This document shows, one piece after another, positions 1,722 through 21,340 of a stretch of 64,000 nucleotides of DNA (the first letter of the stretch is position 1; each line of letters opens with the position of its first letter). The DNA lies in NCBI GenBank assembly GCA_041391945.1, contig JAWKNC010000001.1, positions 189,817 to 253,816 on the forward strand. The letters are read 5' to 3'. The notes beneath the pieces are model-generated. The model was given only the letters and a program-made list of their open reading frames with translations, did no database searches and was not told where the DNA came from. The DNA comes from Allomuricauda sp. Its GTDB lineage: Bacteria > Bacteroidota > Bacteroidia > Flavobacteriales > Flavobacteriaceae. A program made the position numbers and the translations under genes.

Positions 1722-4700
1722 ATGATCCATTTTTTTGGGGACAAGGCGACCAAGGTTTTTGCCGTCCAGACCACTCAAGAAATTTCGCAACAAGACAATG
1801 ATAAACTGACATGGTTGTTTGGCAACCAACCCCAAATAGAAGCGGCGTCCCTGGACGCCTTTTTTGTTGGACCCCGCGCCGCCATGGTCACCCCTTGGAG
1901 CACCAACGCCACGGAGATTACCCAGAACATGGGCATAAAAGGTGTTGTTCGGATTGAGGAGTACCACGCCGTACCCGAAGACTATACCGAGTACGACCCC
2001 ATGCTCTCCCAAAAATACAAAGGTCTCGACCAGAACATCTTTACCATCCATATCGTTCCCGAAGCCATTTTGGAGATTGAGGATATTGCGGCCTACAACC
2101 AAAAGGAAGGGTTGGCCCTGAGCGATGAGGAAATCGACTATTTGGAAAAACTATCCCAAAAATTGGGTCGCAAATTGACGGATTCCGAAGTGTTTGGGTT
2201 CAGTCAGGTGAATTCCGAGCACTGCAGGCACAAAATTTTCAACGGCACCTTTGTCATTGATGGCCAAGAGATGCCCACCTCCCTCTTCAAATTGATCAAA
2301 AAGACCTCAGAGGCCAATCCCAACGATATTGTTTCGGCCTATAAGGACAATGTCGCCTTTATCAAAGGCCCCAAAGCGGTGCAATTCGCCCCAAAAAGTG
2401 CAGACCAACCTGATTTTTACGAAGAAAAGGAATTTGATTCGGTCCTTTCCCTAAAAGCGGAAACCCACAACTTCCCCACCACCGTGGAGCCGTTCAATGG
2501 TGCCGCTACCGGTTCGGGAGGTGAAATCCGCGATCGTTTGGCCGGTGGAAAGGGATCACTGCCCTTGGCCGGTACCGCAGTGTACATGACCTCCTATTCC
2601 CGTTTGGAAAAAGACCGCCGCTGGGAGAAGGGTATGGCAGAGCGGAAATGGCTCTACCAAACGCCCATGGATATTTTGATCAAGGCGTCCAATGGGGCTT
2701 CCGATTTTGGAAACAAGTTTGGACAACCCTTGATTGCAGGCTCTGTGCTCACCTTTGAACATGATGAATCCAAAGATATCTCGACTGCGCTCGATATGAC
2801 GGCGAGAAGATTGGGGTTCGATAAGGTCATTATGCTGGCGGGCGGAATTGGTTATGGAAAAACGGACCAAGCCTTGAAGGATACACCCCAAAAAGGAGAC
2901 AGAATAGTCATTCTGGGCGGGGACAACTATCGGATAGGAATGGGCGGTGCGGCAGTGTCTAGTGCGGATACCGGGGAGTTTAGTTCGGCCATTGAGCTGA
3001 ACGCCGTGCAACGTTCCAATCCTGAAATGCAAAAAAGGGCTTCCAATGCCATCCGTGGGTTGGTGGAAAGCCATGACAATCCCATTGTTTCCATCCACGA
3101 CCATGGCGCCGGTGGACACCTCAACTGTCTCTCCGAATTGGTGGAAGCGACTGGGGGTAACATCGATACGGACAGGCTGCCCATTGGGGATCCCACCCTA
3201 TCGAAAAAGGAATTGATCGGCAATGAATCCCAGGAGCGTATGGGGTTGGTCATAGCTGAAAAAGATCTGGCTCTGTTGGATCGCATTGCGGCCCGGGAAC
3301 GTTCCCCCATGTACGATGTGGGAGTGGTGACCGGTGACCATCGGTTTACCTTTGAATCCCATACATCTGGTGAAAAACCCATGGATCTGGAGCTTTCGGA
3401 CATGTTCGGCAGTTCGCCCAAGACCATTATGGAAGACGTTTCGGCCCAAAAAAAATACAAACCCCTCTCCTACTCCCTAGAGCATTTTCACGACTATCTG
3501 GAGCAAGTACTGCAATTGGAAGCCGTAGCCTGCAAGGATTGGTTGACCAACAAGGTGGATCGGTGCGTGGGGGGCCATGTGGCCAAGCAACAATGTGCTG
3601 GACCATTGCAATTGCCTTTGAACAACTGTGGGGTAATGTCCTTGGATTTTAAGGGCAAGGAAGGGATTGCCACCAGCATTGGGCACTCCCCAGTTTCCGC
3701 TTTGATAGACCCCGTGGCCGGAAGCCGTAACAGCGTGATCGAAGCTCTGACCAATATCGTTTGGGCACCATTGAAAGATGGATTGAAATCGGTCTCCCTA
3801 TCCGCCAACTGGATGTGGCCCTGCCGCAATGAAGGAGAGGATGCGCGACTGTACGAAGCCGTCAAAGCATTATCGGATTTTGCCATAGCATTGGGCATCA
3901 ACGTGCCCACGGGCAAGGATTCGCTTTCCATGAAACAGAAATACAAGGATGGTGATGTTCTCTCTCCTGGAACCGTAATCGTTTCAGCAGCAGCGCATTG
4001 CAATGAGATTACTAAGGTAGTGGAACCTGTGCTCCAAAAAAATGGCGGGTACATCTATTACATCAATCTGTCCAAAGACAGCCCTAAATTGGGCGGTTCT
4101 TCCTTTGCCCAAATCCTGAACGGTATTGGGGATGAAGCTCCCTCTGTTTTGGATGCGGATTACGTAATAACGGTCTTCAATGTCCTTCAAAAATTGATCA
4201 AAAATGACCAAATTTTGGCCGGGCATGATGTAGCTTCAGGCGGATTGATCACCACACTATTGGAAATGTGTTTCGCCGACAATGATCTCGGCGCCAGTCT
4301 GGATTTGTCAGGCCTGGGTGAATCCGATACCATCAAACTATTGTTTTCAGAAAACGTAGGAATCGTTTTTCAATCCAGAGATACCTCCATTGAAAAAATA
4401 CTTGCAGATACCGGAATTGGGTTCCATAAAATTGGCAGTGTCACTTCAGGAAACAATCTACAAATCAAGAACAACGGCATTGAAATCGGCTTGAACATTG
4501 CATCACTGCGTGATACCTGGTTCAAGACCTCCTATCTGTTGGACAATAAGCAGACAGCCAACGGTCTGGCCAAGGAGCGGTATGATAACTATAAAAATCA
4601 ACCCTTACGCTATACTTTCCCCCAGGATTTTGATGGCACCTTGTCACCTCGAGCGCAGTCGAGAGGTAACAACAAGGTCTTGACTGCGCTCGACCTGACA

Positions 4701-5468
4701 TCCCAATCCATGAGACCCAAGGCAGCCGTTCTTCGCGAAAAAGGAAGTAATTCTGAACGGGAAATGGCCAATGCCATGTATTTGGCAGGATTCGATGTGA
4801 AGGATGTGCACATGACCGACCTCATCACGGGTCGAGAGACCTTACAGGATATTCAGTTTTTAGGGGCCGTAGGTGGTTTTTCCAATTCCGATGTATTGGG
4901 AAGTGCCAAGGGCTGGGCCGGTGCAATCAAGTATAATGAGAAAGCGAATAAGTCAATCTCTGATTTCTTTGCAAGGCCCGATACGCTCTCCGTCGGTATC
5001 TGCAATGGTTGTCAATTGTTTATGGAGTTGGATCTGATCAATCCCGAGCATGAAGTCCATGGAAGAATGACCTACAATGACTCTCATAAGCATGAGAGTG
5101 GTTTCACCTCGGTGAAAATCCAGGAAAACAACGCTGTCATGCTTTCCAATATGGCAGGAGCCACGCTCGGCGTCTGGATCTCCAACGGGGAAGGAAAGTT
5201 TAAACTTCCCTATGCGGAGGACCAATACCACATTGTGGCCAAATATGGTTATGAAAGCTACCCGGCCAATCCCAACGGAAGTGATTACAATACCGCCATG
5301 CTCAGTGATAAGACAGGAAGGCATTTGGTGACCATGCCCCACATAGAGCGGTCTACTTTTCCATGGAACTGGGCCCACTATCCAAAGGATAGGAATGATG
5401 CGGTTTCCCCATGGTTACAGGCTTTTGTGAATGCAAGATTATGGATTGAAAACTTGGCGAAACAATAA
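1722..5468 (+). CDS. purL: Phosphoribosylformylglycinamidine synthase (large single-chain PurL)
   Basis: QVNSEHCRHKIF, KAETHNFPT, GAATGSGGEIRD, HDHGAGG, glutaminase GICNGCQ and MPHIER. Confidence 0.98.
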   Translation: MIHFFGDKATKVFAVQTTQEISQQDNDKLTWLFGNQPQIEAASLDAFFVGPRAAMVTPWSTNATEITQNMGIKGVVRIEEYHAVPEDYTEYDPMLSQKYKGLDQNIFTIHIVPEAILEIEDIAAYNQKEGLALSDEEIDYLEKLSQKLGRKLTDSEVFGFSQVNSEHCRHKIFNGTFVIDGQEMPTSLFKLIKKTSEANPNDIVSAYKDNVAFIKGPKAVQFAPKSADQPDFYEEKEFDSVLSLKAETHNFPTTVEPFNGAATGSGGEIRDRLAGGKGSLPLAGTAVYMTSYSRLEKDRRWEKGMAERKWLYQTPMDILIKASNGASDFGNKFGQPLIAGSVLTFEHDESKDISTALDMTARRLGFDKVIMLAGGIGYGKTDQALKDTPQKGDRIVILGGDNYRIGMGGAAVSSADTGEFSSAIELNAVQRSNPEMQKRASNAIRGLVESHDNPIVSIHDHGAGGHLNCLSELVEATGGNIDTDRLPIGDPTLSKKELIGNESQERMGLVIAEKDLALLDRIAARERSPMYDVGVVTGDHRFTFESHTSGEKPMDLELSDMFGSSPKTIMEDVSAQKKYKPLSYSLEHFHDYLEQVLQLEAVACKDWLTNKVDRCVGGHVAKQQCAGPLQLPLNNCGVMSLDFKGKEGIATSIGHSPVSALIDPVAGSRNSVIEALTNIVWAPLKDGLKSVSLSANWMWPCRNEGEDARLYEAVKALSDFAIALGINVPTGKDSLSMKQKYKDGDVLSPGTVIVSAAAHCNEITKVVEPVLQKNGGYIYYINLSKDSPKLGGSSFAQILNGIGDEAPSVLDADYVITVFNVLQKLIKNDQILAGHDVASGGLITTLLEMCFADNDLGASLDLSGLGESDTIKLLFSENVGIVFQSRDTSIEKILADTGIGFHKIGSVTSGNNLQIKNNGIEIGLNIASLRDTWFKTSYLLDNKQTANGLAKERYDNYKNQPLRYTFPQDFDGTLSPRAQSRGNNKVLTALDLTSQSMRPKAAVLREKGSNSEREMANAMYLAGFDVKDVHMTDLITGRETLQDIQFLGAVGGFSNSDVLGSAKGWAGAIKYNEKANKSISDFFARPDTLSVGICNGCQLFMELDLINPEHEVHGRMTYNDSHKHESGFTSVKIQENNAVMLSNMAGATLGVWISNGEGKFKLPYAEDQYHIVAKYGYESYPANPNGSDYNTAMLSDKTGRHLVTMPHIERSTFPWNWAHYPKDRNDAVSPWLQAFVNARLWIENLAKQ
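2779..2800 (-). repeat. REP-like palindromic element, single copy, in-frame inside purL (encodes ISTALDMT)
   Basis: tctcgactgcgctcgatatgac is the reverse complement of GTCATATCGAGCGCAGTCGAGA and matches copies at 4642, 13977, 14027 and 21300. Confidence 0.85.
4642..4700. repeat. Inverted doublet (REPIN-like) of the REP-like element, in-frame inside purL (encodes LSPRAQSRGNNKVLTALDLT)
   Basis: tgtcacctcgagcgcagtcgagagg (4642-4666) followed by inverted copy ggtcttgactgcgctcgacctgaca (4676-4700). Confidence 0.9.
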
Positions 5469-13976: not shown

Positions 13977-14051
13977 TGTCTGGTCGAGCGCAGTCGAGAC
14001 CCTATTGAATTGTCACATTTTTAAGACCTCTCGACTATGCTCGAGGTGACA
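13977..14051. repeat. Intergenic inverted doublet (REPIN-like) of the REP-like element
   Basis: tgtctggtcgagcgcagtcgagacc (13977-14001) and inverted cctctcgactatgctcgaggtgaca (14027-14051), between convergent genes. Confidence 0.9.
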
Positions 14052-21299: not shown

Positions 21300-21324
21300 T
21301 GTCACTTCAAGCGCAGTCGAGAAG
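21300..21324 (+). repeat. REP-like palindromic element, single intergenic copy
   Basis: tgtcacttcaagcgcagtcgagaag between the two peptidase genes. Confidence 0.8.
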
Positions 21325-21340
21325 TCATTAAGGTTTAAGT

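Follow-up and report, generated by a model that had tools for sequence, protein, structure and literature searches.

How does a short palindromic DNA repeat come to lie, three times and in frame, within the gene of an essential enzyme? The question is raised by purL in a 64,000-nucleotide stretch from Allomuricauda sp., a member of the Flavobacteriaceae (assembly GCA_041391945.1, contig JAWKNC010000001.1, positions 189,817 to 253,816 of the forward strand; hereafter the window). The source assembly was obtained from a wastewater metagenome and comprises 3.55 Mb in 14 contigs, with a completeness of 95%. In-frame palindromic repeats are usually taken to be peculiar to Rickettsia and a few other genomes. 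In the present case, the element is best read, with a probability of about 0.8, as a small non-autonomous hairpin repeat of the repetitive extragenic palindromic (REP) type, belonging to the CGTC/TGTC-tagged class and translated as loops in enzymes.

The gene purL possesses three in-frame units, namely one reversed copy and an inverted doublet at 4642-4700, the doublet peptide being LSPRAQSRGNNKVLTALDLT. An earlier note on this DNA had described the repeat in purL as a single inverted copy plus a doublet, both in frame, and matches of the 16-mer TCGAGCGCAGTCGAGA confirmed this, with the peptides as it had given them. Six matches of the 16-mer were present in the window, against 0 expected from shuffles. 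Three of them are in purL, at 2779-2794 (reverse strand), 4649-4664 (forward) and 4678-4693 (reverse, with one mismatch), and the intergenic ones are at 13984 (forward), 14029 (reverse) and 21307 (forward). The features of purL are as follows.

1722..5468, forward strand: purL, an open reading frame (ORF) encoding a large single-chain phosphoribosylformylglycinamidine (FGAM) synthase of 1248 residues (E ~1e-206 to 1e-213 against solved PurL structures)
2769..2798, forward strand: site-1 insertion of 30 bp, corresponding to S350-M359 (SKDISTALDM), placed by gaps in orthologues
2776..2801, reverse strand: reverse unit CGTCA-TA-TC-GAGCGCAGTCGA-GA-TA-T, read as ISTALDMT
4642..4667, forward strand: first unit of the doublet, TGTCA-CC-...-GG-T, read as LSPRAQSRG
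4668..4709, forward strand: the 42 bp beyond one-unit orthologues by alignment, corresponding to N983-S996, NNKVLTALDLTSQS
4675..4700, reverse strand: second unit of the doublet, TGTCA-GG-TCGAGCGCAGTCAAGA-CC-T, read as VLTALDLT

Orthologues had been expected in the earlier note to be about 10 residues shorter at each site. At site 1 the expectation was exact, since 19 of 21 aligned PurL proteins show a gap of 10 residues (30 bp), and only the source genome and G002 carry SKDISTALDM, which sits between FEH(D/E)E and (T/A)RKLGF. Comparisons within the genus were made with Flagellimonas (formerly Muricauda) genomes, labelled G000, G001, G002 and so on, G000 being the source genome; at the DNA level, 16 of the 18 same-genus orthologues have an exact 30-nucleotide gap. 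The site-1 insert is present in 17 of 120 genus-level PurL clusters, and the cultured Flagellimonas (Muricauda) ruestringensis DSM 13258 is one of its carriers. At site 2 the expectation held in part: the second unit does add 14 residues (42 bp), but a single unit is common throughout the genus; what is rare is the second, inverted one, found in two of the 120 clusters (the source genome and P0016). As well, site 2 carries a lone forward unit (LSPRAQSRG) in G012, G004, G016, G011 and G014, a reversed unit of the CT..AG subfamily (LPxASTPLS; this subfamily is described below) in G002, G005, G009 and G007, and an additional 24-bp unit (SFDSAQEP) in G003 and G010, with neither unit type in five genomes. 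G014 and a small number of others also carry a unit at a third site, which follows SYSRLE, and a decayed intragenic copy is present in PurL of G006. The insert combinations assort independently among the 120 genus clusters.

The same sites recur beyond the genus. In 101 Flavobacteriaceae PurL genes, 46 core matches were detected in 32 genes, and 45 of these are units clustered at the three sites, in both orientations and from both subfamilies; the remaining one (column 248) is an untagged chance match in conserved sequence. Carriers outside the genus include Croceitalea, Maribacter, Pricia and several metagenome-assembled genomes, with three units in a row in Pricia. According to the combinations of site, orientation and subfamily, at least 12 separate arrivals in PurL would be needed. 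The empty sites are Glu-rich (GAA GAA), a composition that may simply be due to their position in surface loops. A full-length match to the single-chain large PurL was seen in one of 55 sampled Bacteroidota genomes outside the Flavobacteriaceae, and lower-identity partial matches suggest a split purL/purQ form for other families within the same order.

An AlphaFold model of PurL, based on an 89-sequence alignment (mean predicted local distance difference test score, pLDDT, 78; predicted template modelling score, pTM, 0.84), matches the solved structures 6jta, 1t3t and 9nb3 at template modelling (TM) scores of 0.87-0.89. The site-1 insert (model residues 302-311) is modelled as a loop that separates strand 298-300 from strand 315-317 and has pLDDT <50, and it aligns to a length-variable loop of solved PurL (Salmonella TYEEKVNSHNG..EELRGYHKP). 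At site 2, the first unit is modelled as a short helix, and the second-unit peptide (model residues 934-947) is a low-confidence coil, also with pLDDT <50, ahead of strand 952-957, which is the first strand of the glutaminase domain. Site 2 aligns immediately before Salmonella PurL residue 1043, where the human enzyme has a 15-residue gap. The site-1 insert lies within a beta-hairpin loop of the synthetase domain, and site 2 within the linker that precedes the glutaminase domain. The latter position is the one that the earlier note had given for the second insert, and the mapping on a predicted structure that it had proposed places both inserts in a low-confidence loop or linker.

Alignment of the copies yields a unit of 26 nucleotides with the consensus TGTCA-NN-TC-GAGCGCAGTCGA-GA-N'N'-T, in which the TGTC tag and the 12-nucleotide head GAGCGCAGTCGA are nearly invariant. 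The tag letters T, G, T and C occur in 90, 98, 104 and 100 of 112 units (80-93%), respectively, and a CGTC variant of the tag is found in some units, including the site-1 copy in purL. The stem consists of five pairs, A-N-N-T-C with G-A-N'-N'-T, and the tag is single-stranded 5' of it. In 96 distinct units, pairing reaches 95-96% at four stem pairs (N:N', N:N', T:A and C:G), each of which occurs as two to four pair types. In 66% of units the stem starts with an A:T pair, and its second position varies. Covariation scores 0.511, compared with 0.145 in shuffles (0 of 500 reach 0.511) and at most 0.118 in controls with a slid partner. A subfamily with a double compensatory change, from TC..GA to CT..AG, is itself repeated, with 10-42 copies per genome in the source genus. 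An alternative pairing of TCGA with TCGA, leaving a GA bulge, was rejected, as no compensatory change supports it. The head probably folds into tandem G.A/A.G pairs followed by a G:C pair and a C:G pair closing a GCA triloop with a bulged T, giving about nine stacked positions (five Watson-Crick pairs, two G.A, then G:C and C:G); on a simple reading, the loop would instead have 6 nucleotides. DNA mini-hairpins with GNA triloops are the basis for the triloop reading.

Adjacent units are mostly inverted (+,-) with their tags outward (28 of 31 pairs). Within a pair the stem types complement each other, CA being matched to GT and CC to GG, so that the long doublet hairpin keeps two 2x2 internal loops. 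As single-stranded DNA (ssDNA), the site-2 doublet of purL forms a strong hairpin (-20.3 kcal/mol, z = -6.3). Chimeric units with a tag on both sides are also present among the genome copies.

A genome-wide search for the repeat, which the earlier note had proposed, returned 57 exact copies of the 16-mer and 94 copies with at most two mismatches, and GAGCGCAGTCGA is the commonest 12-mer of the genome. With an ORF-based gene proxy that covers ~91% of the genome and leaves ~9% intergenic, 76 of the 101 tagged units in the genome are intergenic and ~15 are robustly intragenic, coding DNA being depleted of units ~50-fold. The 12-mer core is widely distributed, occurring in 182 of 301 Flavobacteriaceae genus-representative genomes with up to ~105 copies, compared with ~0 for the reversed control. 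Nowhere in the window was there a match to Rfam 15 at gathering score. The intergenic units of the window are listed below.

13977..14051, no strand assigned: intergenic tag-outward doublet of the same repeat family, downstream of a terminator-like hairpin
21300..21325, forward strand: single intergenic unit, ~15 nucleotides upstream of an ATG

The tag is not confined to this family. Among the 4-mers lying 5' of perfect hairpins in the source genome, CGTC and GTCA are enriched more than any other but the terminator-type AAAA, and there are two or more additional families tagged (T/C)GTCA. A second tagged family, [CT]GTCA-NN-CTGAAC..GTTCAG, has 14-17 genome copies. A longer nested palindrome of ~100 bp or more, TGTCATTTCGAA...TGAGAAATCT..AGATTTCTCA...TTCGAAATGACA, with 32 ends in the genome, also ends in TGTCA, as the short units do. 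In the arginine-biosynthesis operon (C2:25500-29800; argG, argC, a proC-like gene and argD), three tag-outward doublets occupy successive intergenic gaps, which resembles the placing of REPs within Escherichia coli operons. Moreover, stop-free units just upstream of true starts give ORFs with false N-terminal extensions (C1:426151-428262, C2:165193-166314 and C4:277779-278604), for instance AVRSSAVETP ahead of the methylmalonyl-CoA mutase large subunit.

The ~15 robustly intragenic units are distributed over 11-12 genes, and the reading frame is kept in all of them. The hosts are PurL, the methylmalonyl-CoA mutase small subunit, LeuRS (twice), GluRS, MetRS, ArgRS and MetH (a doublet), together with a Mfd-like gene, a ketoacyl synthase, a beta-lactamase-family protein, a GSCFA protein and one unnamed ORF. 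They were confirmed by Pfam; PurL, MetH and ArgRS were compared with orthologues, and the evidence for LeuRS, GluRS, MetRS and the others comes from open frames and Pfam. PurL holds three of the ~15 units, though it makes up only ~0.1% of coding DNA. Units of the main subfamily were found in only three readings, SPRAQSR, SSAVE and STALD; none uses the frame that has a stop codon or either of the two containing cysteine. In the CT..AG subfamily, whose head contains a G, what would have been a cysteine frame is read as FDSAQ; ASTPLS is another of its readings.

In MetH (C4:272525-275305; loci L121-L146), the units lie in a variable loop after GLFPANQIxxDDIEV, which is empty in ~10 congeners and holds a doublet (+26 residues) in five and a lone forward unit (VSSSAVEN) in four. 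In ArgRS (C9:20754-22529; loci L147-L171), a unit follows YARIQSILRKA in all full-length Flagellimonas orthologues examined but G001, reversed in 12 (DFDVSTALDMT) and forward in 11 (DNVGSSAVETS); L149, L160 and L167 are examples of decayed copies. The length of ArgRS is essentially constant in both orientations (591-592 residues), and the forward and reverse alleles are mirror images about the centre of TCGA-N6-TCGA, with 24 of 28 nucleotides identical after reverse-complementing, which points to in-place inversion or to alternative resolution of an old doublet. LeuRS (C2:136636-139779) carries a 34-residue insert, VTQSAVEGSDKGGGMLKQVQHDGHSELDSESHEG, in which three different (T/C)GTCA-tagged hairpins follow one another; one of them is of the CGTCA-NN-CTGAAC..GTTCAG family.

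For the origin of these inserts we infer the following course. Copies would be made in trans by an activity other than a transposase of the REP-associated tyrosine transposase (RAYT)/IS200 type, and would settle chiefly in intergenic DNA, many of them as tag-outward inverted doublets that combine two stem types. Selection would then remove nearly all insertions into genes, and the survivors would be those adding a multiple of three bases, in stop-free and cysteine-free frames, within surface loops or linkers, where the repeat would be translated as an extra, probably disordered, loop. The peptides encoded by the repeat are presumably retained in the mature proteins, and the insertions seem to be tolerated rather than useful.

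Several observations weigh against this course of events. No mobilising enzyme, target-site duplication or fresh insertion or excision polymorphism was found, and hence the term mobile element draws on the distribution of the copies only; at the purL insertion borders, few of which are clean, no target-site duplication is visible. Lone units are weak hairpins, with -1.9 to -3 kcal/mol and z ~0 under nearest-neighbour rules. At purL site 2, the unit-bearing allele is merely 1-3 residues longer than the unit-free alleles, so the net length change does not equal one unit. In the PurL tree, G000 is sister to the insert-free G015, the clade of G002 is a different one, and site 2 is unlike in the sister species G004 and G008; from these patchy states at sites 1 and 2, part of the sharing must be due to allele recombination, which makes the number of events uncertain. 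The only RNA contig ends before site 1, and no protein-level evidence of translation was obtained. Finally, the silent sites of intragenic units are two to four times more conserved than those of flanking codons, unlike passively tolerated junk. Counted pairwise as codon differences at residues identical between orthologues, and not corrected for phylogeny, the silent differences are 0.21 inside the unit compared with 0.43-0.53 in flanking codons at purL site 1, 0.117 compared with 0.44-0.47 at purL site 2, and 0.23-0.25 compared with 0.45-0.52 in ArgRS. The intragenic copies are thus not simply decaying. Such conservation would be explained by ectopic conversion, with the ~100 other copies as donors, or by selection acting on the nucleic acid. 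The view of the earlier note that selfish repeats are making new loops is supported, but a picture of selfish and decaying repeats is incomplete, because silent sites are conserved above background.

The conserved silent sites bring in the possibility, tentative in our view, that the units are functional nucleic-acid elements, either a binding site or a structured DNA or RNA signal for a conserved Flavobacteriaceae factor, with the peptides as a by-product of dual constraint. The 12-nucleotide head is invariant across 182 genera and the stem covaries; silent differences inside units (0.12-0.25, compared with 0.43-0.53 in flanking codons) are low though the unit, as we read it, uses rare codons; at the variable stem pair of purL site 2, P/G (C:G) occurs in 12 clusters, S/G (T.G) in 10 and S/D (T:A) in nine, and the combination P/D (C.A) is never seen; and the unit is kept at one ArgRS position in every Flagellimonas examined except G001. 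However, units occur in both orientations relative to transcription, contrary to an RNA function, many intragenic copies decay (L149, L160 and L167 in ArgRS; G006 in PurL), close relatives do well without inserts, and, the pairwise counts being uncorrected for phylogeny, conversion from ~100 copies would mimic the signal without any function. With the same reserve, it might be speculated that an ancient, family-wide structured element is recognised by a conserved putative factor, probably as an ssDNA hairpin on the lagging-strand template, and that this factor preserves its sequence through copy-correction or selection, within reading frames too, and could flip it in place; if so, the loops of PurL, ArgRS, MetH and other core enzymes would have been shaped by a nucleic-acid constraint, not by a protein one. 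A rather doubtful alternative, given slightly less weight, is spread by recombination on quasi-palindromes, that is, by ectopic conversion, template switching, in-place inversion and interspecies allele exchange. It would fit the mirror-image ArgRS alleles of identical length (24/28 nucleotides), the purL site-2 alleles that are common to different clades and differ between sisters such as G004 and G008, the independent assortment of insert combinations in the 120 genus clusters, the chimeric units tagged on both sides, and the confinement of conservation to the unit itself. Nevertheless, conversion cannot seed a site without homology, and the first arrivals at the 12 or more PurL combinations need an insertion step. 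Moreover, single units tend to have their forward strand on the locally G-rich strand (36 of 49, p = 0.0014), a bias that suits a strand-specific ssDNA mechanism and would fit an activity on the lagging-strand template, although gene orientation confounds it.

That strand preference, which follows GC skew as in IS200/IS605-type ssDNA elements, together with the tag, the bulged hairpin and the inverted doublets resembling REP doublets forming hairpins (REPINs) and bacterial interspersed mosaic elements (BIMEs), could also indicate a classical REP/REPIN system driven by a RAYT (Y1/HUH) transposase. This is very improbable, since PF01797 (RAYT/IS200) is missing from copy-rich genomes and abundant in copy-free ones: none was detected in the source genome (95% complete), G002, G016, G263, G126, G209, G302 or G136, the PF01797-free genomes holding 49-105 copies (105 in G263), and the family is abundant in the copy-free G035, G107, G125 and G261. 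Besides, the tag is TGTC, not GTAG, and no gene bracketed by units was found in the source genome, where arginine-biosynthesis and other housekeeping genes are what lies between close doublets. A DUF559 (Vsr-fold) nuclease was considered as the partner enzyme; full-length PF04480 matches show a weak phyletic trend, occurring in 12 of 16 repeat-rich compared with two of nine repeat-free genomes, but this comparison is small and confounded by phylogeny. None is present in G263 with its 105 copies, the source genome has merely a 25-bit fragment, and the genes are not flanked by units, the sole nearby units being the intragenic copy in ArgRS; a partnership is accordingly improbable. In three genomes a small DUF559 gene is convergent with ArgRS, ~55-85 nucleotides from its 3' end (G002:C1:696826-697146, G012:C18:6952-7272 and G016:C4:527634-527954), so that the association with the unit there is synteny; in the source genome the gene is missing beside ArgRS. 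Lastly, ancestral PurL sequence, chance resemblance and assembly error can practically be dismissed as the source of the peptides. Beyond the shortness of the motif nothing speaks for any of these, whereas no chance matches are expected, the orthologue gaps are exact, and the site inserts recur in independent assemblies of other species. Logan contigs from two separate wastewater-metagenome samples (X1 records 1 and 3; X2 records 8 and 13) cover both purL sites with zero differences, and the assembly artefact that the earlier note had named as a possible refutation is thereby excluded.

Taken as a small non-autonomous hairpin repeat of the REP type, the element indicates that the process regarded as peculiar to Rickettsia and a few other genomes is at work in free-living, effectively selected marine Flavobacteriaceae. 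Its repeated strikes on the same permissive loops of PurL, MetH and ArgRS, which vary in genus, orientation and reading frame, amount to a natural insertion scan of essential enzymes and a source of new protein segments. Presence in ~60% of genera and absence from the rest make phyletic profiling feasible as a way to the agent that mobilizes or preserves CGTC-type REPs. In annotation and alignment, false N-terminal extensions and odd loops are to be expected from the units. Of interest here are hot spots that recur, alleles differing in orientation only, the silent-site conservation and the missing enzyme.

Among known repeats, two types can be set aside. Miniature inverted-repeat transposable elements are 70-300 bp long, with terminal inverted repeats and a target-site duplication, compared with a unit of 26 nucleotides and no duplication visible at the purL borders. 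DNA uptake sequences have ~1000 or more copies, many of them intragenic, compared with ~100 copies and ~50-fold depletion in coding DNA here. REP/BIME and REPIN-RAYT systems of Enterobacteria and Pseudomonas share the tag and the imperfect hairpin, the alternation of two unit types (as Y and Z REPs in BIMEs), the mainly intergenic position within operons, and an orientation bias consistent with ssDNA. Unlike in REPIN-RAYT systems, there is no GTAG tag, no RAYT in the source or many copy-rich genomes, and no REPtron.

Rickettsia palindromic elements (RPEs), reportedly the subject of Ogata et al. in 2000 and of Claverie and Ogata in 2003, are closer in behaviour, and the comparison with them made in the earlier note holds functionally. 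In both, palindromes lie in frame in housekeeping genes, including those of aminoacyl-tRNA synthetases, and are translated as extra surface segments, selection leaving only the insertions compatible with the protein. The hosts differ, being free-living marine or wastewater Flavobacteriaceae here and an obligate intracellular bacterium with relaxed selection there, and so do the sizes (26 nucleotides compared with ~100-150 for RPE-1). Also unlike in RPEs, only ~15% of the copies are intragenic, the same loops are struck repeatedly across genera, and silent sites are conserved. By analogy, the unit would work like RPEs; as host and unit length differ, it is not filed as a member of the RPE-1 to RPE-8 sequence family.

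The nearest class is that of the CGTC-tagged REPs, which are characterized by Di Nocera, De Gregorio and Rocco (2013, BMC Genomics 14:522; PMC3733652) as palindromes of 20-40 bp with a terminal CGTC, often TGTC, a stem of 8-9 bp starting with A:T pairs, a loop of 4-5 nucleotides and a short 3' tail. According to the same paper, they are mostly inverted dimers, dispersed and mainly intergenic, with some intragenic copies, tRNA synthetases included, and apparently without a dedicated transposase; their hosts include Gramella forsetii, a member of the Flavobacteriaceae, and RPE-4 and RPE-6 of Rickettsia conorii are equated with them. It reports no intragenic copies, purL case or family-wide distribution for the Flavobacteriaceae. 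In the full-text literature of a non-exhaustive library, no prior description of intragenic copies in the Flavobacteriaceae was found. The 26-nucleotide unit agrees with the CGTC-tagged REPs in its size, its TGTC/CGTC tag, its short 3' tail, its many dispersed and mostly intergenic copies with a few in genes such as those of tRNA synthetases, its inverted dimers and the lack of a RAYT. It departs from them in the head, which is an invariant 12 nucleotides with probable tandem G.A pairs and a GCA triloop instead of a plain loop of 4-5 nucleotides, and in the second stem position, which is variable here and A/T there, the Gramella family having been compared by description only. The element is therefore best filed in the CGTC/TGTC-tagged REP class, as a new and very widespread member with RPE-like behaviour, the phenomenon itself being a known one.

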